A stretch of DNA of 64,000 nucleotides, taken from Candidatus Binataceae bacterium (GTDB lineage Bacteria > Desulfobacterota > Binatia > Binatales > Binataceae). The stretch covers positions 135,663-199,662 of the forward strand of contig DATKOZ010000035.1 in assembly GCA_035524375.1 (NCBI GenBank). Reading direction: 5' to 3'. Shown piece after piece: positions 293 through 11,175 of this stretch; positions within the stretch are counted from its first letter, which is position 1, and the number at the start of each line of letters is the position of its first letter. The notes under the pieces were generated by a model. That model was not told the origin of the DNA and made no database searches. It saw only the letters and a program-made list of their open reading frames with translations. The translations under genes were made by a program, and so were the position numbers.

Positions 293-1636
293 ATGGCGGC
301 GAATAATTCCGGCGAGAAGATAGGGCTCCGCCCGCTGCTAATTTATGCGCAAGGACAGGGAAGTCTCAACCTTTGCTCGACGCTGCTCGCCCTCCATTTG
401 CTTTATTTTTATACCGACCGGATGGCGCTGTCCGCGACATTGGCGGGCATCGCGCTGTTTGCCGCGCTTACGCTCGATGCGTTGACCGACCCGCTGATGG
501 GCAACATCTCGGACCGCGCGCGCTTCAAATCGGGGCGACGGCGGCCGTTTTTTATCGCGGCGCTACCGATGGCGATCTGCTACTACCTGCTGCTCGCGCC
601 GCCGGCCGGCGTGAATCTGTTCGTGTGGCTGTTCTGCTTCGATTTCCTGATGCTGACGGCGCGCAAGGTTTACGAGACCGCCTACGGCGCGCTGATGCCG
701 GAACTTACGCTCGATTACGACGAGCGCACGCGCTTGGCGGCGCTGCGCCAGATGTGCGGCACCGTAGGGGATGTCAGCGGCGCGCTGTTGCCGTTTGCGG
801 CGGCATATTTTTTCTCGCGCGGCACGGATTTCAAGGCGGCGGGCGCGATCTGCGCGATCGCGGCGGCGGGAGGCGCGCTGCTGGCGTACCTCGGCTTGCG
901 CGAGCGTCCGGAATTCAGTGCGCTGGAAAGCTCGCGACTGGGGCCGGCGATGAAGGCCGCGATGGCCAACCGTCCCTTTATCATCCTGCTGCTCGCGACC
1001 GGATTTGCGGTGATGGCGATTAATTTCCCGACCGTACTGCTGCGGTTTATAGCCAAATACTGGCTTCACGATGACGACGCGGCGGCGCGGATGCTGGGGG
1101 CATATTTTGCGGGCGGAATCGTTTCCTACCCGTTCTGGATGAAAATCGGCGGGCGGGTGGAAAAGAAGCAGGCGTTTGTGGGCGCGCTTGCGTGCAATGC
1201 GCTGGCTTCGCTCACGTTCATGGCGGTTACGCCGGAGAACATCCGGATCATCATGTTCCTGATGGCGTTCAGCGGATTTTCCGCGATCGGGATGTGGATC
1301 GCGCAAATGTCGTCATCGGCCGACGTAATCGAGTGGGATGAGGAGCGTACCGGGCAGCGGCAGGAGGGCGCCTACGCGGGCCTGATTTCGATGTCGATCA
1401 AGCTTTCGGCCGCAGTCGCGATACTGCTGATCGGCCCGATGCTCAATTGGATCGGCTACCGGCCCGGGATGGCGGCGCTCACGCCGGCGGCGGAGAGCAA
1501 TCTGCGGCTGCTCTTTGCAATTGTGCCGGCGGTTATCTACTCGATGGGCGCGCTGGTCTTCATGCGATATCCGATCACCCGCGACATGCATTTCGAGATG
1601 CGCCAGCGCCTGGCCACCCGCAACGCCCCGGCGTGA
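293..1636 (+). CDS. MFS transporter, glycoside-pentoside-hexuronide (GPH, MelB-like) cation symporter family
   Basis: 447 aa with about 12 predicted TM segments. Has the GPH N-terminal signature LLYFYTDxxAL and a charged loop DRARFKSGRRRPF. The start is uncertain (293 or a downstream in-frame start) because only about 24 bp separate it from the divergent lipoprotein start. Confidence 0.75.
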   Translation: MAANNSGEKIGLRPLLIYAQGQGSLNLCSTLLALHLLYFYTDRMALSATLAGIALFAALTLDALTDPLMGNISDRARFKSGRRRPFFIAALPMAICYYLLLAPPAGVNLFVWLFCFDFLMLTARKVYETAYGALMPELTLDYDERTRLAALRQMCGTVGDVSGALLPFAAAYFFSRGTDFKAAGAICAIAAAGGALLAYLGLRERPEFSALESSRLGPAMKAAMANRPFIILLLATGFAVMAINFPTVLLRFIAKYWLHDDDAAARMLGAYFAGGIVSYPFWMKIGGRVEKKQAFVGALACNALASLTFMAVTPENIRIIMFLMAFSGFSAIGMWIAQMSSSADVIEWDEERTGQRQEGAYAGLISMSIKLSAAVAILLIGPMLNWIGYRPGMAALTPAAESNLRLLFAIVPAVIYSMGALVFMRYPITRDMHFEMRQRLATRNAPA

Positions 1637-1939: not shown

Positions 1940-2130
1940 GGATCGTCATCCTGAAGGCTAAGGCCTGAACGAAGTGTAGGGTCTCTCTATCCAAGCCAGC
2001 GAGATGCGCTGGCTTGACCGGTAGGCTTGTCCTGAGCCGTTCGACCTCGCTCAGGGTAAACTCCGCCGAAGGAATCCCGATCCTCTTCCGCGTCGCCGTC
2101 CCCTCCCCCTGTCACCCTGAGCGGAGGCTG
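1940..2130. repeat. Left-flank copies of a short dispersed repeat family (core CGCTCAGGRTGACA and its reverse complement)
   Basis: Copies at about 1945 (cgtcatcctgaagg), about 2057 (cgctcagggtaaac) and about 2108 (ctgtcaccctgagcgg). The same core recurs five times at 5811–6085 and once at about 6700, in the opposite orientation relative to most left-flank copies. Confidence 0.45.
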
Positions 2131-2270
2131 CCGGAGTCGAACGGGTCTCGCGCGCGAAGCCCGCGCAACCCAGTGCGCGGTAGCGCTGATGATGCGCTTT
2201 TATCGCGAGCGCATGACGGTATCGTCACGCGCTGACAATCTTACCACGAACAGGCAGTTTTCTTTCTTTC

Positions 2271-2873
2271 CTATTTGATGCGGCCAAGAATCCCTGTCAC
2301 AAGGTTCTGTCGCGCGAGTTCCGAACCCACAAACGGGTATCGGTTCTGCAGAAAACTCAACGTAATATTGCCTTGTGAGTAATCACGGGCAATTTCAAAT
2401 CTTAATTCGACTAACGGCTCGCTGTTTAACTTCAAAACATCGATCGTATGGGAAATCTGGCCAATCAAGGCATTTTCCAAACCATCTCCCGGCTGCACAT
2501 AAAAGCTCGCACAGTCCAAGACAAACCAGCCCGCTTGAATCGAAAAAGGGTCGAGCAGGCCCATCTTATCGCCCTTATCATGATTAATCCGAGAGCTGCA
2601 AAGCCGGTAATTGCTCCACTCATATGCCAGTTCCGGGTGTCGAGCTTTAGGCAAGAAGTGATCTACCGAGTAATCTGTAGGAAGCCAGCAGGCTGAGTAG
2701 GCGCAGATACTATTGTAGGCTGTTCGTAGGTCTTCTAGGCAGTTTTTCCAGAAACTATTTTTAGAAAATTGCTTGCTTGTGGGGCTTGGGCAGGACGCGA
2801 GAAACGAGAGCCCCGGAGTTCGAACCTTGCTGGCAAATCCGGCCGGTTCTGGCTGAGAGGAAACTGGTATCAC
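2271..2873 (-). CDS. HNH-family nuclease, PtuB/TIGR02646-like
   Basis: 200 aa. HNH motif CAYSACW…VDHFLPK…LCSSRINHDKGDK (Cys pair, D-H, N…K). GTG start overlaps the stop of the upstream ATPase gene (ctGTGAta). Low local GC. Confidence 0.7.
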   Translation of the reverse strand: MIPVSSQPEPAGFASKVRTPGLSFLASCPSPTSKQFSKNSFWKNCLEDLRTAYNSICAYSACWLPTDYSVDHFLPKARHPELAYEWSNYRLCSSRINHDKGDKMGLLDPFSIQAGWFVLDCASFYVQPGDGLENALIGQISHTIDVLKLNSEPLVELRFEIARDYSQGNITLSFLQNRYPFVGSELARQNLVTGILGRIK

Positions 2874-4744
2874 AGCTTCACTCCTTTACTTTCGGCGAAA
2901 AACAGCCACCTAGGCCAAAATTGATCATCCTCAGGAAGGACCTTCCGGAGCTCACCCGATACCCGATGAATAACCCCAGCATCCGGTTTTACCGTCGACA
3001 TAAGTTTCTTGGCCTCTTCCAGAATGGATTCACTTTCCCGTGAGCGAGCCTGGCGCAATTCGAATATTTCCGAGGTCAACCACCTGTCAACGCTGCCGTG
3101 GCGGATGAACGGGATCTCCGTGAATTCAGCTAACCCGCCGCCGGTTAACCGAAGATGGAACAGTTTGTCAGTACTGTCTGAGAATTCCGCCTCGATCGAA
3201 GCTAGAATGAGCGGAGAATGTGTCGCAACTATGGCCTGATACTGAAGTTCGTTACTAAGTATCGTTGCAACTTCCAGAAGTGCTGGTAATGCAACGCGCT
3301 GCCATTTTGGGTGCAAATGTGCTTCTACTTCGTCTATGAGTACCACGAGTTGCCGTTGTGGTGGGCGGTTTGAAAGTTTAGAGTAGATTTTATGTTCGTT
3401 CCAACACCAAACCAGAAGATAGGCCAAGGTAACGATACGTCTAACACCCGCAGACTCGTTAGTGAAAGGAACATCGCCGTAGGGGTGTTTAAGTGTCGGG
3501 ATCTCACGCGCCTCTCCGGGAATTCGGATGGATCGACCCGGCTTCAACGGAGACATATCAGGGGGCGAAAGCTTTTCCAGTACGGCACAGAAGGTCTCAA
3601 AAATCTCGCGCTGGTCGCTGCTATTTTGCCAACGAACCCAATCGCGTAGAAGCCCTTCTATTTGCCCTTCGAGTCCATTTAAAACTTCGTCACGGGAAAC
3701 CACCAATGCCGCAACGCGCTGCTCGCGCTGAATTGGCGAGTGCCGGGCAGGGTCCCACACGGCAAAGGAACCATCGACTCGGGCATAAACAACCAAGCCC
3801 GGAAGAGTTGGCCGCCCCTTGGGCGCGGGCCATTGCTGCGTGTTCCAGTCATAGCGGATTGTTATTGATTCTGGGCGACTCTTGCTGGCAGCGATTTCAA
3901 ACTTGATGCTGACCGCAGGGAGGGACTGGTCGGGATTCGGAAAAGCCGCCCGACCGGCCCAATGGCCGGTTAGCGCCCACCAAGCACATTCAAGGATAAA
4001 GGTTTTCCCGAGGCCGTTATCTCCTGTAATAATCGATAGCCGTTCCGCCGGCTGAAAGGAAAGGTGTGCGCTCGGACCAAGACCCTTCATCTCCAATAGG
4101 CGAAGCGTTCCGCCGACCTCTGGAACGCTGTCTGGCGCCGGCTTGATGACTTGCAGTAGCCTTTTATCAGAGTACGCTTCATCGGTATACAGCTCCTGCT
4201 TCCTATATACGGTAGCAAGGAACAATTTCTCGCGTTCTTCACGCGATACATAGAAATCTGAAAAGAGCCGATCTTCAATCGCCTTCGTCCCAACAGCGGT
4301 CTGCCAATTATGATTCCGATAGATCCAGATCGCTAACCACAATGCTGGTATAGCGTGAACCTTATCTATATCAAGTTCCTGTTTTAGAATATCTATATAG
4401 TTAGTGCTCCAACCCCAGAGATTCGTGTTCCTCGGATGAACAAATGCCCCACCCAAACGCCCCCTTGTGCGCGTACTTTGCGAGCCAGAAAAGGGATACT
4501 TGTGAACAATCCAGCCGCCCTCTCTACTTGAAGTGCGAAAGGGCTGGAAAAAATACTCAGAATTAGGGTTCGGTTTATAGTACGTGTCGAGAAATGCCTC
4601 TTCTTCGTGATTGATTGAAAATGGAATAGCCTTGCCAATCGGCAGTTGCGCCTTCTTGCATACTAGGTACGAGATTCCAAAAAACGGGTGAAGCGAACGA
4701 AGCTTCTCGATTGCCTCCTGAACGATTTCGAATCGGAAATACAT
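2870..4744 (-). CDS. ABC/AAA_21-type ATPase (PtuA-like) with a roughly 230-aa N-terminal domain of unknown function
   Basis: 624 aa. Walker A ITGDNGLGKTF at about aa 238; Walker B/D-loop LVVLIDEVEAHLHP at about aa 465; H-loop ATHSPLIL. The N-terminal 230 aa (W/Y-rich, YFFQPFRTSSREGGWIVHKYPF) match no family I recognise. Its ATG immediately follows the methyltransferase stop (TGAATG). Confidence 0.75.
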   Translation of the reverse strand: MYFRFEIVQEAIEKLRSLHPFFGISYLVCKKAQLPIGKAIPFSINHEEEAFLDTYYKPNPNSEYFFQPFRTSSREGGWIVHKYPFSGSQSTRTRGRLGGAFVHPRNTNLWGWSTNYIDILKQELDIDKVHAIPALWLAIWIYRNHNWQTAVGTKAIEDRLFSDFYVSREEREKLFLATVYRKQELYTDEAYSDKRLLQVIKPAPDSVPEVGGTLRLLEMKGLGPSAHLSFQPAERLSIITGDNGLGKTFILECAWWALTGHWAGRAAFPNPDQSLPAVSIKFEIAASKSRPESITIRYDWNTQQWPAPKGRPTLPGLVVYARVDGSFAVWDPARHSPIQREQRVAALVVSRDEVLNGLEGQIEGLLRDWVRWQNSSDQREIFETFCAVLEKLSPPDMSPLKPGRSIRIPGEAREIPTLKHPYGDVPFTNESAGVRRIVTLAYLLVWCWNEHKIYSKLSNRPPQRQLVVLIDEVEAHLHPKWQRVALPALLEVATILSNELQYQAIVATHSPLILASIEAEFSDSTDKLFHLRLTGGGLAEFTEIPFIRHGSVDRWLTSEIFELRQARSRESESILEEAKKLMSTVKPDAGVIHRVSGELRKVLPEDDQFWPRWLFFAESKGVKL

Positions 4745-5650
4745 TCAGAGGATCGTAGGCGCATCCCGCAGTTGGTCGACCATGTAACGGCAAAAATCGG
4801 CGTGTAGATCTATTCCGGTTGCACAGCGCCCAGAAGCCAACGCCACTCGTAAAGTCGTACCGGAACCTGCAAACGGATCAAGTACGCGGCCTCCAGGTGG
4901 GCAGCCAATTTTGAGACACCTTTCGACAAGTTCATCAGGGAATGGGGCGGTATCAATACCATTGGTGGGCTTCGGCCTTGCCGCAATGGTCCAGACGTCT
5001 TCCTCGACTACAACGTCGGCTAATGCTTGGCGATTAAAAAAGTAGTTTCTTGACTTCGCAAACATGAATACGTTTTCGTAGCTTCGCCGCGGTCGGTCTT
5101 TCACGGCTTCGGCAAGAGCATGTTTGCGATGCCAAATAATAGCACTGCGTAATACCCAATGTCGCTGTGCGAGTTCTAGTGCTGTACGCCAAGGTATTCC
5201 GATTACAGATTTTGGCCGGATGCCAATACCTACGCCGCCGCTCTTATCTACTGCACGTAAGCCGAACCGACGTTTTGCGCTCTTGCGGTCTATGCCCTGC
5301 GACTCGCCTTTGCCAGAATAGTAGGTATCGCCAAGATTCAGGAAGAGGAGACCGTCTTTTCGCAGAACGCGATACACCTCGCTCATGATATCGGCTATAG
5401 AGGTTATATATTCGGTAACTGTGTCTTCATGGCCGATTTGGCCTTGGATGCCATAATCGCGGAGCCAATAATAGGGGGGGGAAGTGACGACACAATCAAA
5501 CTGATCTTCTGGAAGGTGAGCGAGAACCGTCCTTGCGTCACCGCAATACACTTCCCATTTCTGGCGACGCCCGGTTGCGCCACACCAGCGTTTCAAATCT
5601 CTGGAGCACCCGGCAGTTCTGGCAACAAGTGGGCCCTCCCCCAGTCTCAC
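4745..5650 (-). CDS. DNA methyltransferase, beta-class N4-cytosine/N6-adenine (N6_N4_Mtase family)
   Basis: Motif IV VVTSPPYY precedes motif I LDPFAGSGTT (order IV→I, beta class; SPPY favours N4-cytosine). 301 aa; the true start may be downstream of 5650. Confidence 0.85.
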   Translation of the reverse strand: MRLGEGPLVARTAGCSRDLKRWCGATGRRQKWEVYCGDARTVLAHLPEDQFDCVVTSPPYYWLRDYGIQGQIGHEDTVTEYITSIADIMSEVYRVLRKDGLLFLNLGDTYYSGKGESQGIDRKSAKRRFGLRAVDKSGGVGIGIRPKSVIGIPWRTALELAQRHWVLRSAIIWHRKHALAEAVKDRPRRSYENVFMFAKSRNYFFNRQALADVVVEEDVWTIAARPKPTNGIDTAPFPDELVERCLKIGCPPGGRVLDPFAGSGTTLRVALASGRCATGIDLHADFCRYMVDQLRDAPTIL

Positions 5651-5804
5651 AGTTCCACCCTTTGCTGGCTGTGATGGTGGCGCCTGTGTTCGGGGACCAC
5701 GGGGGCGGTTTCGTCGGATTCAACGCGCACCATTTGGTTGTGCTTTATAGCATAGGTGGAAAGAGCGGCCAACTCTGGAGCGGGGTCTCAGCGACGCCGA
5801 ACGG

Positions 5805-6095
5805 GTAGGAATCGCTCGGGATGATAGAAAAAAGCAGCAGCCCGGCGCACCATCGGTTGCGCGCGCTGCGCGCGCGAGATCCTTCGACTCGTGCAACGCT
5901 CGCTCAGGATGACAAAAAGCGCGGGGCGAGGCGCGGAAAAAGATTCGGGATCCCTCGACTTCGGCTCGGGATGACAGAAAGAGGGCGGCATCCGGGATTC
6001 CTCACGCGCCGGCCTCGCGCGGGAATGACATGGAGAGGGGCAGGGCTCAGGGCTTCGGCTCGGATGACCAAAAAGGAGAGACTTCTCGGAGCCAA
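5805..6095. repeat. Degenerate tandem array (about 4.5 units of 60–70 bp) of the CGCTCGGGATGACAGAAAG repeat family
   Basis: Units begin at about 5811 (cgctcgggatgatagaaaaaag), 5890 (cgctcaggatgacaaaaag), 5957 (ggctcgggatgacagaaag), 6019 (cgcgggaatgacatggag) and 6058 (ggctcggatgaccaaaaag). Each is preceded by gat(c/t)cctcgact(t)cg. Confidence 0.55.
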
Positions 6096-6144
6096 ATGGT
6101 TCACGACCTTGCCGGGCCAACTCGGCAGCCGTACAATAACCCGC

Positions 6145-6375
6145 ATGAGCGGCCATCGAGCGCGGGTCGAGAAAGGGAGGCTGATTCTCGACGAGCCGAC
6201 AACACTGCCCGAAGGCACGGTTGTCGAGTTGGTCGCCGACGACGAGGGCGACGACCTTTCCGATAAGGAACGCCGCGCGCTCCACGAAGCGCTATCCGCG
6301 TCTTGGCAATCGGCTGAGCGGGGGCGTCTTCGCCCGGCATCGGCGATTGTGGACGAACTGCGCCATCGCCGGTGA
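6145..6375 (+). CDS. Type II antitoxin (ParD/Phd-like addiction-module antidote)
   Basis: Small acidic protein (…VVELVADDEGDDLSDKERRALHEAL…). Overlaps the downstream ParE-like toxin gene by 4 nt (ATGA). An alternative upstream start at 6064 (MTKKERL…) is possible. Confidence 0.6.
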   Translation: MSGHRARVEKGRLILDEPTTLPEGTVVELVADDEGDDLSDKERRALHEALSASWQSAERGRLRPASAIVDELRHRR

Positions 6376-6677
6376 GCCTACCGGTACGAACCACCCCCGA
6401 AGCGGACGCACAGATCCGCGCGATCGATAAATGGTGGCGCGAGAACCGCACCGCCTCATCCGAGCTGTTCGCTGACGAATTGGCCGCGGCGTTCGACCTC
6501 ATCGGTCATGCACCCGGCATTGGCCGCTCGTATCGGCGTTCTCCCGTATCAAGCACACGCCGCATCCTCCTTAAAGCCGCTCGCTATCACGTTTATTACG
6601 CGTCAAGCACCAATGAGGTGCGAGTGCTCGCAGTGTGGCATGCACGGCGCGGCGTTGGACCACCGCTTCGCGCATAA
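6372..6677 (+). CDS. parE: Type II toxin, ParE/RelE family
   Basis: 101 aa; EADAQIRAIDKWW…RSYRRSPVSSTRRILLKAARYHVYYASSTNEVRVLAVWHARR matches the ParE/RelE fold signature. Confidence 0.8.
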   Translation: MSLPVRTTPEADAQIRAIDKWWRENRTASSELFADELAAAFDLIGHAPGIGRSYRRSPVSSTRRILLKAARYHVYYASSTNEVRVLAVWHARRGVGPPLRA

Positions 6678-7602: not shown

Positions 7603-8423
7603 TTAATCGGTGGCAGGAAGTCGGGCATGTCCTTGGAGGCCTTGAGCTTCCAGGCCGGTTTGCGCTTCTGCAGGAAGGCGGTCACGCCCTCGTAGGCGTC
7701 GGGCTGCATCCCCGCCCACATGAACGTGCGCGTGTCCATCGCCTCGACTTCGTCGGCCGATTCCTCAGTCATGAACCGGTAGATTAGCCGCTTGGTCATC
7801 GCGACCGAGACCGGGGCGGTGTTATCCGCGATGTCTCGCGCCATCTCGCGGACCTTCGGCATGAATTCCGCGTCGGGCCACACATGGCTGACGACGCCGA
7901 ACTCAAGCGCCTCGCGCGCGCTGATGACCTTTCCCGTCATCAGCAGCTCGTTGGCGCGTGCCAGTCCGATCAAGCGCGGCACCGTCCACATGCTGAGCGC
8001 CTCGGGCGTGATCCCGCGCCGGACGAATACGAAGCCGATCTTGGCGCTCTCCGCCGCCACGCGAATGTCCCACTGCATCGGGAGCGTGATGCCGACGCCG
8101 ACCGCCGGGCCATTGATCGCGCCGATAATCGGTTTGCGGATGTTCCAAGGGCGCACCGAATGCGGCTGGAACGCCTCCCCGGTTTGCGCGCGCTTGTCAT
8201 AGTCGAAGGTCTCGCCGCCGGTGCCAAGGTCGGCGCCCGCGCAGAATGCGCGGCCGGCGCCGGTCACGACGATTACCCGCACATCGTCATTGGTGTCGAA
8301 TTCGGCGAATGCATCGTGCAGTTCCGCGCCCATCCGCTGGGTATAGGCGTTAAGCCGCTCGGGGCGGTTGAGCGTGATGGTTGCGACGCCGTCTTTAATC
8401 TCGGTCAGAACCTGGCTGGCCAT
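7599..8423 (-). CDS. Enoyl-CoA hydratase/isomerase (crotonase) family protein
   Basis: ITLNRPERLNA…VVTGAGRAFCAGADL crotonase signature. Confidence 0.85.
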   Translation of the reverse strand: MASQVLTEIKDGVATITLNRPERLNAYTQRMGAELHDAFAEFDTNDDVRVIVVTGAGRAFCAGADLGTGGETFDYDKRAQTGEAFQPHSVRPWNIRKPIIGAINGPAVGVGITLPMQWDIRVAAESAKIGFVFVRRGITPEALSMWTVPRLIGLARANELLMTGKVISAREALEFGVVSHVWPDAEFMPKVREMARDIADNTAPVSVAMTKRLIYRFMTEESADEVEAMDTRTFMWAGMQPDAYEGVTAFLQKRKPAWKLKASKDMPDFLPPIK

Positions 8424-8543
8424 GCGATGTTCCTCCTGCGGGCAAATCCGCGCTCCGCATTCGCGTTATAGCCCGCAATTGGCCGATTGGAAAAGCACAG
8501 GGACAACGATAGTTGGAAAGAGAGGTCCGGTAACCGACGCGCG

Positions 8544-9503
8544 TCAGCGGCGGACGGGGCGGGCCTCGGCCGTCTCGCTCACCGGATCGCTGGTGCTCAG
8601 CATATCGCGCCATCCTTTTCGGCGGCGGGAACCGCGCGGTTTGGCGCCAAGGCGCTGCAGGTGCAGTTCGAGGACATTCTTTAGTTCCTCGTTCAGGAGC
8701 TCGATTTCGACCTCCTCCGGCATTTTCGGACGCGGCTGGCCTTCGGCGACTCCACCCTGGCGCCGGCGCCCGTAAAGCTGTTGGAGTCGCAATTCCGCCT
8801 TTGCCAGAGAGGCTTTGTATTTGTAATCCAAATGGCCGAGGGCATCGGCGAGTCCGGCCAGCGCGACGAACCGGCGCCGCATCCGCCACCATTCGAACAT
8901 CGACACCAGCATCACGCCGAACATCAAAACCGCAGCCACTCCAATGCTTGCGGCGGTTGCGCGCCACCAGGTAAGGGCCTGCTGGTTCGCCTGCAATTCG
9001 TGGTTATCGGCGGTCAGTTCCTGCACCTGGCTTTGGAGCGATCTGATATCGTCCTGCGCCGACTCGGCCTTTTGGTTGGAATTACGCAATTGAGCCGCGG
9101 TACCGTTCAATTGCGATTGGAGCGTTTCCACCTGAGCGGCGAACGGATTTGGCACCTTAAGGACATCGCCCGCGACCAATTCATCGTCCGGATTAATTTT
9201 ATTGGCATGTGCCAGCGTCTCGGACGGAACTCCGAACATCTTTGCGACGCCGCCGAAAGTATCGCCGGGGCGAACGGTGTAGGGAATCATCGCGGCCGGA
9301 TGCTCGGAAACCGCGGCAGCCGGCGCAGCCGATTCAGTCTTCGGCTGGATTACGGGAGGAGTCTCAGGGCGTTCAACCGGTGCGGAAGGACCAATCGATG
9401 ATTCGGTTACGTCGGTCTGCGCCGTTGCGATTTGGCAGTATGCCGCGAAGGCGACCGCTACCGCCATCCCGGACAATGTCAGTTTGATTCGCCTGAGTCT
9501 CAT
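8544..9503 (-). CDS. LysM domain-containing membrane/periplasmic protein with coiled-coil
   Basis: N-terminal signal/TM; LysM YTVRPGDTFGGVAKMFGVPSETLAHANKI…GDVLKVP; coiled-coil segment; C-terminal TM. Confidence 0.7.
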   Translation of the reverse strand: MRLRRIKLTLSGMAVAVAFAAYCQIATAQTDVTESSIGPSAPVERPETPPVIQPKTESAAPAAAVSEHPAAMIPYTVRPGDTFGGVAKMFGVPSETLAHANKINPDDELVAGDVLKVPNPFAAQVETLQSQLNGTAAQLRNSNQKAESAQDDIRSLQSQVQELTADNHELQANQQALTWWRATAASIGVAAVLMFGVMLVSMFEWWRMRRRFVALAGLADALGHLDYKYKASLAKAELRLQQLYGRRRQGGVAEGQPRPKMPEEVEIELLNEELKNVLELHLQRLGAKPRGSRRRKGWRDMLSTSDPVSETAEARPVRR

Positions 9504-9742
9504 GGCGAAACCATCAATACATCAAGTATTCATCAGATGACCGCGCGGGTCTAGGGTTCAAGGGGAAGAAAGATTAATTCACGGCGCTAATTTCGTCTAA
9601 TCCGAGTGGAATCGAGCATTAGTGGCGCTGGTGGGCGTAGATGCTTCGCAGCCAAAGCATCGCGAACGACGCTGTTTGCCATGGCTGCGTTATGATAGCT
9701 AGGCATCATGAGTCAGAATTCTTTAACGAAAAGGTGCAGAAG

Positions 9743-10180
9743 ATGAGAACAAAATTTATTTTTCCAGCCGGAATACTGGCCATTGCCGTATCGATCGGGG
9801 TTGCAAACGCCTCTCAATTATTCGTCTACCCGAAAAATGGGCAAAGCGCCGAGCAAAAGGATCGCGACGAGTACGATTGCTACAAGTGGGCGAAAGAGAA
9901 CAGCGGCGTCAATCCGAACGCTCCCGCCCAGACGGCCAAACCGGGAGAACGAGCGGGCGCGGTTATCGGCGGTGGCGCCAAGGGCGCGGCACTCGGGGCT
10001 GGAATGGGCGCGATCGCGGGCAACGCCGGCAAGGGAGCCGCAATGGGAGCGGTTGGTGGCGCGGTTGTTGGGCGGCGGCAGCGGTTGATGAACGAAAAGA
10101 TGGAACACAGCATGACGACCCATACCTACCATCGCGCCTTTGCGGCCTGCATGGAGGGTCGCGGGTATACGGTGAAATAG
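9743..10180 (+). CDS. Glycine-zipper (Gly/Ala-rich) small secreted/outer-membrane protein
   Basis: Signal peptide MRTKFIFPAGILAIAVSIGVANA followed by GAVIGGGAKGAALGAGMGAIAGNAGKGAAMGAVGG. The start is taken at the internal ATG of the listed ORF 9641..10180. Confidence 0.6.
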   Translation: MRTKFIFPAGILAIAVSIGVANASQLFVYPKNGQSAEQKDRDEYDCYKWAKENSGVNPNAPAQTAKPGERAGAVIGGGAKGAALGAGMGAIAGNAGKGAAMGAVGGAVVGRRQRLMNEKMEHSMTTHTYHRAFAACMEGRGYTVK

Positions 10181-10425
10181 ATCGACAGACTGATTTAGCC
10201 CGGGTCTCGTTTTTCAAGCGTGATGTTAAATTCATAGGATGCAAGAAAACCCTTGATGGGGTTGGGTTCGATTTGGACGGTGTGTTGGAATTAGCCGCAC
10301 GAGCCTCCGATATGTCCGGGAAAGCGGCCGGAACGGCCCGCGGCGGGCCAGGACCAGCGTCGAAACTGCCAAACTTTGCGCAGAGAGGCGGGTCGCCATT
10401 TCAGATTGGTCAGGATTGGGGAGTG

Positions 10426-11175
10426 ATGATGGAGAACCCGCTCAATTTGGTAATCGGGGGTTTGCTCTTCGTACTGTTATGCGGCACGAGCGCGTATGGC
10501 GCGCCGACGTCGGGATTTATCGACGCGAATGGCATCAAGGTTCCCTACCTGATCGATGGTACCGGCGAACCGGTCGTATTGATCCATGGCCTCGATTCCA
10601 GCGCGGAAGCCACTTGGCAAAAGCCGGGCACAATGGAAGCGCTGGCGAAGAATCACCAAGTTATAGCGATCGATTTGCCGGGATTCGGACAATCCGGAAA
10701 TTCCGACGAGTCCACCGCATACGGCGACCGCTGGGTCGATGACGTAACGGCTCTTCTCAACCAACTGAAAATCCGCAGGGCGCATATCGTCGGCTACTCA
10801 ATCGGTGGGCTCGTCGCATTAAAATTCGTCGACGAGTATCCGGACCGCGCAATCTCCGCAACGCTGGGCGGGATGGGGTGGCTGGAAGCGGACAGCGGCC
10901 TGGAGAGAGACTGGGTGCGGAAGCAAAACCCGCTTGCCTTCGGCGTCAGCCAGCTCGCGCTAACGCGAGGCGATCTGGAGTCGATTCAGGTTCCAGTTAT
11001 TATACTCGTCGGCGACTACGATAAATCGAACGAGTTCTATGTAGCGCCCCTTCAAAAGCTGCGTCCCGATTGGAGGGTCGTTGCGATAAAAGATGCCAAT
11101 CACCTCACTTGCGTTTCCAAGCCGCAATTCATCGACGCACTCGTGAAATGGATCGATGCTAACCGACAAAAATAG
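10426..11175 (+). CDS. Alpha/beta hydrolase fold protein
   Basis: VVLIHGLDSS…nucleophile elbow GYSIGG. The start is reset to MMENPL (RBS ggggag upstream); the upstream 183 aa of listed ORF 9877..11175 overlaps the previous gene in another frame. Confidence 0.8.
   Translation: MMENPLNLVIGGLLFVLLCGTSAYGAPTSGFIDANGIKVPYLIDGTGEPVVLIHGLDSSAEATWQKPGTMEALAKNHQVIAIDLPGFGQSGNSDESTAYGDRWVDDVTALLNQLKIRRAHIVGYSIGGLVALKFVDEYPDRAISATLGGMGWLEADSGLERDWVRKQNPLAFGVSQLALTRGDLESIQVPVIILVGDYDKSNEFYVAPLQKLRPDWRVVAIKDANHLTCVSKPQFIDALVKWIDANRQK

Follow-up and report, generated by a model that had tools for sequence, protein, structure and literature searches.

What is the long N-terminal region of a Septu-like ATPase in Candidatus Binataceae for, and how is it connected with the DNA methyltransferase (MTase) gene beside it? 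The ATPase is encoded by an open reading frame at positions 2870-4744 (reverse strand) of the 64,000-nucleotide stretch of DNA analysed here (the window). This is a real gene; its 624-aa product is 100% identical to a protein labelled by NCBI as 'AAA family ATPase [Candidatus Binataceae bacterium]' (P0009). The body of the protein matched Pfam AAA_21, AAA_15 and AAA_23, the last from residue 217, and the PADLOC model PDLC00307 over residues 214-622 (E 3.4e-145), while the PADLOC PtuA model PDLC00270 was matched over the full length (E 1.8e-230). A Foldseek search with the predicted body returned only PtuA structures as its top matches (E 2e-14 to 1e-10). Together, the curated PtuA profiles, the Walker A, Walker B and H-loop motifs and the adjacent PtuB HNH gene identify the protein as a Septu PtuA. 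In PtuB, the HNH core (DH...N...NH) lies at residues 71-98 (nt 2580-2663); NCBIfam TIGR02646 and PtuB models were matched below their cut-offs and Pfam HNH_4 was matched weakly. The GTG start of PtuB overlaps the PtuA stop by 4 nt (GTGA) and the TGA stop of the MTase directly abuts the PtuA ATG (TGAATG), so that translational coupling links MTase, PtuA and PtuB here. As in a restriction-modification (R-M) system, a cognate-type MTase and a nuclease gene are encoded together. The features are listed in Table 1. The low-GC island is not delimited by a tRNA or an obvious att site.

Table 1. Features of the MTase-PtuA-PtuB cassette, with positions in the window.
Feature	Residues	Position (nt)	Strand	Remarks
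Low-GC island		2000..5700	.	Composition profile: ~50% GC vs ~63% in flanks; holds all three cassette genes
PtuB HNH nuclease	200 aa	2271..2873	-	PADLOC PtuB PDLC00348, E 4e-62
PtuA ABC-type ATPase body	209-624	2873..4120	-	Stop codon 2870-2872
PtuA H-loop ATHSP	507-511	3212-3226	-	
PtuA Walker B VVLIDEVEAHLHP	467-479	3308-3346	-	
PtuA Walker A GDNGLGKT	241-248	4001-4024	-	
PtuA N-terminal domain	1-208	4121..4744	-	AlphaFold2 pLDDT 92.8, pTM 0.90
Acidic linker of N-terminal domain	179-208	4121-4210	-	
Folded core of N-terminal domain	1-~178	4211-4744	-	
AFxHxxxxxxWGWxxxY motif	100-116	4397..4447	-	H103, W110, W112, Y116
Loop motif KYPFSGSQSTRTRG	82-95	4460..4501	-	Y83, Q89 near-invariant
HPFFG motif	19-23	4676..4690	-	H19, F21, G23 invariant in both architectures (alignments A4, A5)
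N6_N4 (beta-class) DNA MTase	301 aa	4745..5650	-	Pfam PF01555, E 1.4e-37; PADLOC MTase_II, E 4e-79
MTase FAGSG (AdoMet motif I)	260	4859-4873	-	
MTase SPPY motif	57	5471-5482	-	

The secondary structure predicted by AlphaFold2, Pfam AAA_23 and PADLOC PDLC00307 agree that the first strand of the ATPase lies at ~209-213, and the extra domain therefore comprises residues 1-~208. A sequence-only reading of this DNA had proposed a domain of ~230 aa ahead of Walker A; more than 200 residues do precede the P-loop, but the last ~20 of those assigned to the domain are part of the ATPase. The N-terminal domain (N-domain) consists largely of helices, with few and short strands, and is an autonomous fold; an acidic linker joins it to what is a bona fide PtuA ATPase. 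It had also been described as aromatic- and Trp-rich. Aromatic residues (F+W+Y) are indeed enriched, at 15.4% compared to 8.7% in the ATPase part, whereas Trp is not (2.9% in the domain and 3.4% elsewhere in the protein). The core is mildly basic, with a median pI of 8.6 (range 5.3-9.9); some McrB-type proteins carry an acidic version.

That the domain matches no nameable family was confirmed by profile and structure searches against Pfam, NCBIfam, PHROGs, PDB and BFVD. Residues 1-230 gave noise alone in Pfam, NCBIfam and PHROGs (FGAR-AT_N, E 0.24), and a profile of 28 diverse N-domains gave one chance match among all PDB sequences (E 0.28). Foldseek of the domain against PDB yielded no match beyond scattered winged-helix proteins at a probability of at most 0.06, and BFVD yielded none. 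Neither sequence nor Foldseek comparison revealed likeness to the DUF3578, YTH, EVE, B3 or SRA reader folds. One PADLOC model of PtuA, PDLC00270, is 627 positions long and includes the domain (residues 1-229, E 3e-55), which is thus catalogued within a PtuA subfamily model, yet without a name or explanation. Using tblastn against PLSDB and INPHARED, it was not found on sequenced plasmids or phages. No convincing free-standing gene was detected; short matches (P0003, P0006 and others) were short contigs or disrupted genes, and at one locus (L037) the N-domain gene is cut off by an IS5-like fragment.

An exhaustive search of 1.84 billion representatives returned 250 clusters at E<=1e-3, in which the domain was invariably N-terminal. 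A word-indexed search with the domain alone recovered 8 fragments, and the family size was taken from the full-length and exhaustive searches. In GTDB genomes, 46 loci encoding an N-domain-PtuA were found across many phyla, with the invariant motifs, which together with the 250 clusters puts the family far above chance. Carriers in culture include Lonsdalea britannica LMG 26267 (L028), Dyadobacter sp. CY356 (L033), Microcoleus vaginatus DQ-U2 (L017) and Microseira wollei NIES-4236 (L008). The domain was found on two motor types only: the PtuA ABC ATPase, with PtuB next to it, and McrB-type AAA_5 NTPases, with McrC or LlaJI-R2 next to them. Gene order across the 46 PtuA-type loci is MTase, N-domain-PtuA, PtuB, and the MTase directly upstream is intact in 34, absent in six, a remnant in five and unknown in one. 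AAA_5/McrB_lid NTPases bearing the domain are P0160, P0163, P0170, P0178, P0247, P0250 and P0262, and genomic contexts were fetched for five of them (P0160, P0163, P0170, P0178 and P0250). The partner in these contexts is McrBC (PF10117), RE_LlaJI (PF09563) or another PD-(D/E)xK-like protein, and an N6_N4 MTase with 50-61% identity to that of the window, sharing the TSPPYY motif, stands alongside in 5/5.

Beyond the HPFFG motif, conservation is concentrated in the loop at residues 82-95, which also occurs in the variant form (R/D)YxS(S/T)GLQAINTQ, and in the motif at residues 100-116. Its invariant histidines, tyrosines and glutamine (H19, H103, Y83, Y116 and Q89) would suit a second catalytic activity, with the domain acting as a nuclease, glycosylase or similar enzyme. 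We consider this very doubtful: a conserved cluster of acidic residues that could support metal-dependent catalysis is lacking (E48 and D127 vary across architectures), a dedicated nuclease is already the partner in every system, and the structural searches matched no enzyme fold.

In the window MTase, motif IV precedes motif I and the catalytic motif is of the SPPY type, the arrangement of beta-class N4-cytosine enzymes. Among its relatives in the PDB are the SPPY enzyme 2zie and the cytosine-N4 MTases 8s9m and 8s9n, and we take SPPY in this protein to be N4C-specific. From these motifs, the product is probably N4-methylcytosine. In both architectures the N-domain is accompanied by MTase orthologues (50-81% identity), whose central region is near-invariant across the two, suggesting a single specificity, which a conserved reader could match. 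Derivation of the N-domain from the recognition region of the MTase was rejected (hhalign A5 versus A6, probability 0.2%).

The nearest PtuA-PtuB pairs lacking the N-domain (39-41% identity) have no MTase, and the close MTase orthologues that were sampled (n=3, 72-78% identity) are followed by a PtuA of domain-bearing length in 3/3. For the N-domain and the MTase alike, the McrB-type systems find their closest PtuA-type relatives at L031, L032 and L036, which suggests that the two travel as a unit. Distances of N-domain and MTase, measured from the McrB-type systems to PtuA-type loci, showed no significant rank correlation (rho -0.04 to 0.24). Where the MTase is intact, Q89 is retained in 39/39 loci; where it is missing or a remnant, Q89 is replaced in 4/9 (Fisher p=6.5e-4). 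The four loci with a replaced Q89 (L022, L041, L043 and L034) come from four phyla, and PtuA and PtuB are still intact in them. At L015, L018 and L039 there is no adjacent MTase, yet every key residue of the N-domain is retained.

The N-terminal domains of McrB proteins are interchangeable DNA-recognition modules (DUF3578, YTH, EVE, B3) (PMC7680126, PMC12707154). The N-domain resembles these McrB specificity domains (DUF3578/ADAM, YTH, EVE/PUA, B3) in its placement, N-terminus-linker-motor, and in modular swapping; it is MTase-linked rather than part of an MTase-free Type IV system. LlaJI consists of a McrB-like R1 with an N-terminal B3 reader, a McrC-like R2 and MTases; it reads the unmodified site, and the MTases are paired with the system (PMC7680126, PMC12707154). 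The combination of an MTase, a reader-bearing NTPase and a separate nuclease, with attack on unmodified DNA, is common to LlaJI and the system proposed here, and the sisters, in which McrB-type NTPases carry the N-domain, have RE_LlaJI or McrBC partners. In contrast, the window has an ABC ATPase motor, an HNH nuclease, one MTase rather than two and a putative reader that is not of the B3 fold. An AAA_5 GTPase with a McrC-type partner, which characterises LlaJI/McrBC, is present only in the sisters P0160, P0163, P0170 and P0178 and not in the window. Given a position equivalent to that of the modified-base readers of McrB, and conserved aromatics (W78, Y83, W110, W112 and Y116) that could make a base-binding cage, the N-domain might resemble that of E. 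coli McrB in recognising a foreign modification. This Type IV-like role is improbable in our judgement. A co-inherited MTase would mark self DNA for attack unless the marks differ, the domain has no likeness to SRA, YTH, EVE or DUF3578 folds in PDB, and MTase-associated McrBC branches were called 'surprising' for Type IV, and left unexplained, in the CoCoNuT census (PMC11090510).

The pairing with one MTase clade, the McrB/LlaJI-type reader position and the decay of the loop upon MTase loss lead us to think it somewhat probable that the N-domain reads an unmethylated target site and licenses the motor-nuclease, which would make the cassette a Septu of R-M type. The same comparative genomics renders plausible the nucleic-acid or modification sensing that the sequence-only reading had suggested. 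The fold matches no known DNA-binding domain and the basicity of the core is mild, which both speak against a reader. Likewise, the intact domains at L015, L018 and L039 call for an unlinked MTase or some other explanation.

The main rival is a docking adaptor, as in Type III systems, in which the N-domain binds the MTase, and the MTase recognises the sequence and reports its methylation to the motor-nuclease. The pairing with the MTase and the coupled decay are predicted equally by such a role. That a single MTase clade accompanies the domain on both motors is explained as well by docking as by reading, and PtuA proteins that lack the domain and an adjoining MTase, as well as the decay of the Q89 loop upon MTase loss, fit it too; modest basicity without a known DNA-binding fold would suit a protein-protein module. 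However, the N-terminal domain itself binds DNA in all characterised McrB-family enzymes, including the MTase-linked LlaJI, and small beta-class MTases (~280 aa) usually work alone. At one locus (L053) the MTase sits in a convergent operon rather than upstream, and the three loci with an intact domain and no adjacent MTase are at odds with docking as well. We regard the adaptor as rather unlikely.

Compared to Septu type I (E. coli PtuAB; 8EE4, 8EEA and 8SUX), the window system is alike in its PtuA and PtuB profiles, fold and overlapping genes, but has in addition the ~208-residue N-terminal domain on PtuA and a co-transcribed MTase. The Walker A lysine is K247 in the window PtuA and K43 in canonical E. 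coli Septu (PMC13096335). The sequence-only statement that PtuA-type ATPases normally start at the P-loop is accurate for the latter but not for retron PtuA, which has a 63-residue N-terminal domain (NTD) (PMC12673091). The description of Septu subtypes in PADLOC has no MTase-linked type (PMC8565338). Retrons of type I-A (Ec78/Eco7, Ec83) share the ATPase-HNH effector pair with the window, and their PtuA sets a precedent: its N-terminal appendage couples the effector to a nucleic-acid sensor, contacts msrRNA and is required for defence (PMC12673091). The retron NTD is unrelated to the window N-domain, and the sensor there is RT-msDNA rather than an MTase. The window proteins also missed the NCBIfam retron equivalog cut-offs (PtuA NF041760, 59.9 versus 500 bits; PtuB, 32 versus 150), and no reverse transcriptase or ncRNA gene was found adjacent to the window PtuA.

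Septu is thought to be triggered by infection cues, such as ATP level or phage factors, and not by sequence. The N-domain might accordingly be an infection sensor that binds a phage protein or nucleotide, or a lid that keeps the PtuA oligomer inactive, with the MTase functionally separate. The want of a recognisable DNA-binding fold and the persistence of some loci without an MTase agree with this. It leaves unexplained why the same MTase clade stands beside two unrelated motors, why domain-less sisters have no MTase beside them and why the genes are translationally coupled, and we consider it unlikely, more so than MTase docking.

If the N-domain is a methylation-sensitive reader, the MTase would mark a fixed short sequence of host DNA, probably with N4-methylcytosine. 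The N-domain would bind the same sequence when unmethylated, via a surface formed by H19, the Y83-Q89 loop and H103-W110-W112-Y116. Binding would be passed on to the ATPase ring and license the partner nuclease. PtuB could then cut foreign DNA, or host tRNA as in E. coli Septu/retron-Eco7, and infection would stop. On the McrB-type motors of the sisters, the N-domain would serve a DNA nuclease of the McrC type, like the B3 domain of LlaJI. Characterised PtuAB effectors may cut tRNA and not DNA, so that classical restriction cannot be taken for granted. More tentatively, and as a possibility short of an even chance, we propose that the N-domain has a fold not described before and reads a specific DNA sequence with sensitivity to its methylation (probably N4-methylcytosine), that it serves as a plug-in self/non-self head on at least two unrelated motor-nuclease machines, and that the PtuAB cassette is a methylation-gated hybrid of restriction and abortive infection.

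The triggers implicated so far in the firing of Septu are ATP level, phage factors and the msDNA of retrons. The present subfamily points to a third, much simpler trigger, in which the self-marking logic of R-M is borrowed through a dedicated reader domain. The presence of the domain on McrB/LlaJI-type motors as well indicates that the MTase and putative reader act as an exchangeable specificity cassette, which is relevant to the assembly of new restriction systems and touches the MTase-associated McrBC branches that the McrBC census left open (PMC11090510). Annotation pipelines call such loci plain 'Septu' beside an orphan Type II methylase, and the link is missed. A DNA reader as compact as this (~180 aa), and possibly sensitive to N4-methylcytosine, would also be a useful reagent. 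If true, the proposal would define a new R-M class with an ABC ATPase as its motor and an HNH enzyme as its nuclease, in which a Septu effector that is otherwise infection-cued, and sometimes tRNA-cutting, becomes methylation-gated.

The window ATPase carries more than 200 residues ahead of its P-loop, as the sequence-only reading had proposed: Walker A (GDNGLGKT, residues 241-248) is followed by Walker B (467-479) and the H-loop (507-511). That reading had matched residues 1-230 to no nameable domain, and Pfam, NCBIfam and PHROGs returned nothing credible for them. The full-length PADLOC PtuA model PDLC00270 (627 positions) spans residues 1-229 (E 3e-55), and the architecture therefore already sits under the label 'PtuA', with its N-terminal part never separated or named. 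The extra domain is thus real, but it extends to ~208 residues rather than ~230, because a second PtuA model, PDLC00307 (424 positions), begins only at residue 214 and the first ATPase strand of the full-length model (pLDDT 92.1, pTM 0.81) is at 209-220. This N-domain consists of a ~178-residue core and an acidic linker with a net charge of about -5. It is aromatic-rich as described (F+W+Y 15.4% versus 8.7% in the ATPase part), but tryptophan is not specially enriched.

AlphaFold2 modelled residues 1-212 very confidently from a 128-sequence alignment (pLDDT 92.8, pTM 0.90), with predominant helices and few short strands. Foldseek against 350,542 PDB chains gave no match to this model better than E ~1; the only hint was scattered winged-helix proteins at probability <=0.06. 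The model had no match in BFVD, nor did a 28-sequence profile in all PDB sequences, and the N-domain is unnamed in every family library searched. Kinship with the cognate methyltransferase was also considered, and hhalign between the two gave nothing. The modelled fold may be new.

To the body of the ATPase, the top PDB matches of the full-length model were all PtuA chains (Foldseek E 2e-14 to 1e-10), from retrons Ec83, Ec78 and Eco7 and from E. coli Septu (8EEA, 8EE4, 8SUX); PDB sequence searches reached the same proteins via the Walker B region. The NCBIfam retron-type PtuA and PtuB equivalogs scored far under cut-off. No reverse transcriptase was found near the cassette, so the window pair is Septu-type. 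Its profile matches, fold and partner gene make the ATPase a member of the Septu PtuA family, not a retron-type PtuA. NCBI holds a 100% identical entry, 'AAA family ATPase [Candidatus Binataceae bacterium]'. The three genes lie in a low-GC island (~50% GC versus ~63% in the flanks by composition profile). Between methyltransferase and ATPase the stop codon runs straight into the start codon (TGAATG), and the HNH gene begins within the end of the ATPase gene (GTGA, shared by start and stop), so the three genes are almost certainly co-translated.

Coordinates of the cassette, its surroundings and features of related loci
Sequence	Feature	Position	Strand	Remarks
Window	HNH protein, 200 aa	2271-2873	-	PADLOC PtuB E 4e-62
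Window	PtuA ATPase, 624 aa	2870-4744	-	PADLOC PtuA models
Window	N-domain, residues 1-~208	4121-4744	-	
Window	N6_N4 DNA methyltransferase, 301 aa	4745-5650	-	Pfam PF01555 E 1e-37; PADLOC MTase_II E 4e-79
Window	37-nt imperfect inverted repeat	2143-2179; 5846-5882		81% complementary; GC-rich GCGCGC core
Window	REP-like element GCTCGGGATGAyAGAAA	5814-5830; 5902-5918; 5964-5980		three direct copies; TTTCTGTCATCCCGAGC on minus strand
Window	Long ORF	5821-6375		no Pfam match
Window	ParE-family toxin gene	6372-6677	+	PF05016 E 1.6e-9
L037 (Anaerolineae MAG)	Disrupted N-domain copy	8001-10906		N-domain reading frame runs into IS4/IS5 transposase fragment (DUF4096), not ATPase
L052	P0178	6001-8013		extra domain of ~150 residues
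L051	Small HTH or PhdYeFM-like gene	818-1027		just upstream of methyltransferase
L052	Small HTH or PhdYeFM-like gene	4887-5126		just upstream of methyltransferase
L047	Small HTH or PhdYeFM-like gene	4921-5130		just upstream of methyltransferase

The inverted repeat flanks the cassette almost exactly and could represent mobile-cassette ends or chance in GC-rich DNA. The REP-like copies lie upstream of the methyltransferase and are overlapped by the long ORF, whose 5' part is probably spurious; its end overlaps the start of the ParE-family gene just past the cassette, and its C-terminal part may be an antitoxin.

When 1.84 billion representative proteins were searched exhaustively by HMM, 250 N-domain clusters came up, of which 110 reached E<=1e-30; in every match the domain started at residue 1. 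Among GTDB genomes, sampled at one per species, there were 46 loci, in Acidobacteriota, Cyanobacteria, Chloroflexota, Bacteroidota, Proteobacteria (including cultured Lonsdalea britannica), Planctomycetota, Spirochaetota and Firmicutes; the N-domain was not found on any sequenced plasmid or phage. The residues conserved across members are grouped in few motifs: H19-P-F-(F/Y)-G23, F66-x-P68, W78, (K/R)Y83-x-x-(S/T)G-(S/L)-Q89-x-x-x-T93, A100-F-x-H103, W110-G-W112-x-x-x-Y116 and P133 ... W140. Locus L037 lies in a defence island and its copy is disrupted; the gene after the interrupted reading frame encodes a 627-aa protein that resembles a DUF262/GmrSD-type Type IV enzyme and has an HNH motif at its C-terminus.

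The N-domain is an autonomous module used on two motors. It precedes a PtuA ATPase in 82 representatives and an AAA_5 (McrB/dynein-type) NTPase in seven long proteins, some with McrB_lid, which match PADLOC 'REase_II' models. The five neighbourhoods examined for these seven are McrBC/LlaJI-type restriction layouts: a small PhdYeFM-like gene, N6_N4 methyltransferase, N-domain-AAA_5 and a 416-aa partner (L047-L050); HTH_17, methyltransferase, N-domain-AAA_5 and RE_LlaJI (PF09563; L051); HTH_3, methyltransferase, N-domain-DUF8426-AAA_5-McrB_lid and McrBC (PF10117; L052); methyltransferase, N-domain-AAA_5-McrB_lid and McrBC (L055); and N-domain-AAA_5 convergent with an operon of a methyltransferase and a 514-aa protein (L053). 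The small gene upstream of the methyltransferase, which recalls the C (controller) proteins known from Type II restriction-modification, has no counterpart in the window. Loop residues 82-95 of the N-domain alignment exist in two forms, SGSQSTRTRG and SGLQAINTQ. The latter occurs in PtuA-type loci L023, L027, L028, L031, L032, L036 and L040 and in four of five aligned McrB-type loci (L053 has TTLQRARTT), and the split therefore does not track motor type. The domain inserted before the motor of P0178, the L052 protein, is DUF8426 in precomputed Pfam and matches PADLOC PDC-S02 models; it resembles PUA/EVE-like modified-base readers by eye, and P0178 may carry two readers. The system in L047-L050 (P0160-type) neighbours DNA polymerase A, a PD-(D/E)xK/DUF2800 protein, an Enc34-like ssDNA-binding protein and a VapE/D5-type primase-helicase, which points to a phage-like or integrative mobile element as its likely carrier.

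The N-domain is strictly paired with one methyltransferase clade. The co-occurrence that the sequence-only reading had raised was seen in most of the 46 GTDB loci, with PtuB alongside and, directly upstream, a methyltransferase 62-75% identical to that of the window, a conservation above that of the N-domain (29-58%), ATPase (41-62%) and PtuB (40-56%). The methyltransferases of McrB-type systems are 50-61% identical to that of the window over full length and have TSPPYY in common. The centre, GDTYYSGKGKSxGxDxKSxKRRFGLRxVDKSGG...PWRVA, is almost invariant in both architectures and is where beta-class enzymes hold their target-recognition region, which argues for a single methylation specificity across both. 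Relatives in the PDB include cytosine-N4 enzymes; from these and the SPPY motif, we take N4-methylcytosine to be the predicted product. Three close methyltransferase orthologues (72-78% identity), picked at random, each precede a PtuA of 626-629 aa and a PtuB-sized gene, called at 146-214 aa. The closest PtuA relatives without the N-domain (39-41% identity) are in plain PtuA-PtuB pairs on plasmids of Allocoleopsis, Azospirillum and Azotobacter, with no trace of methyltransferase or N-domain within 4 kb.

Decay of the N-domain is coupled to methyltransferase loss. Intact PtuA-PtuB lacks an adjacent methyltransferase at six loci, and only a methyltransferase remnant is present at five. Scoring 25 conserved positions in every locus revealed that Q89 was kept in 39/39 loci with an intact methyltransferase and replaced in four of nine without (Fisher p=6.5e-4). 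These four, L022 (R), L041 (F), L043 (L) and L034 (R), are from different phyla, and the first three also lose nearby conserved residues (Y83, G87, T93, H103, W110). Such decay is expected if the Q89 loop is the working surface for a function rendered harmful or useless by methyltransferase loss. Yet L015, L018 and L039, also without an adjacent methyltransferase, keep all key residues, which an unlinked methyltransferase might explain. In L007, L038, L042 and L045, a frameshifted or IS-interrupted PtuA accompanies a methyltransferase remnant, suggesting that all parts of the cassette are lost together.

We propose that the methyltransferase would mark a fixed site on host DNA, and that the N-domain, joined to the PtuA ring by its acidic, flexible linker, would bind the same site when unmethylated and so license the ATPase-nuclease. 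The strongest rival is that the N-domain docks the methyltransferase, as in Type III-like systems, which fits all three genetic arguments equally well; the modest basicity of the domain (median pI 8.6, range 5.3-9.9) does not separate the two. However, the N-terminal domain of the McrBC/LlaJI family is an established interchangeable DNA-recognition module, with DUF3578 reading 5mC (E. coli), YTH reading 6mA (Thermococcus) and B3 of LlaJI, which is paired with methyltransferases, reading an unmodified specific site (PMC7680126, PMC12707154). Since every characterised N-domain of this family, methyltransferase-linked LlaJI included, binds DNA directly, a DNA reader is favoured. Bell et al., in their McrBC census, called methyltransferase-associated branches surprising and postponed them to a subsequent publication (PMC11090510). 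Two further readings, an infection sensor or lid that acts independently of methylation and a Type IV-like domain that recognises foreign modifications, are less likely than a DNA reader. A catalytic role is likewise less likely and a weak proposal, as the N-domain lacks a conserved acidic cluster and a nuclease is already present in each system. Retron PtuA offers a precedent for coupling PtuA to a nucleic-acid sensor through an N-terminal appendage: its residues 1-63 contact msrRNA, and removal of the two N-terminal helices (3-36) abolishes defence (PMC12673091).

The proposed working logic of the window system is like that of LlaJI-type restriction-modification, but its ABC ATPase motor and HNH nuclease place it outside that type. 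No methyltransferase-linked Septu subtype is described in the literature searched, including the PADLOC paper (PMC8565338). We classify the system as a Septu effector with a restriction-modification-type specificity cassette, and its PtuAB version may act, under methylation gating, as either a restriction enzyme or an abortive-infection device.
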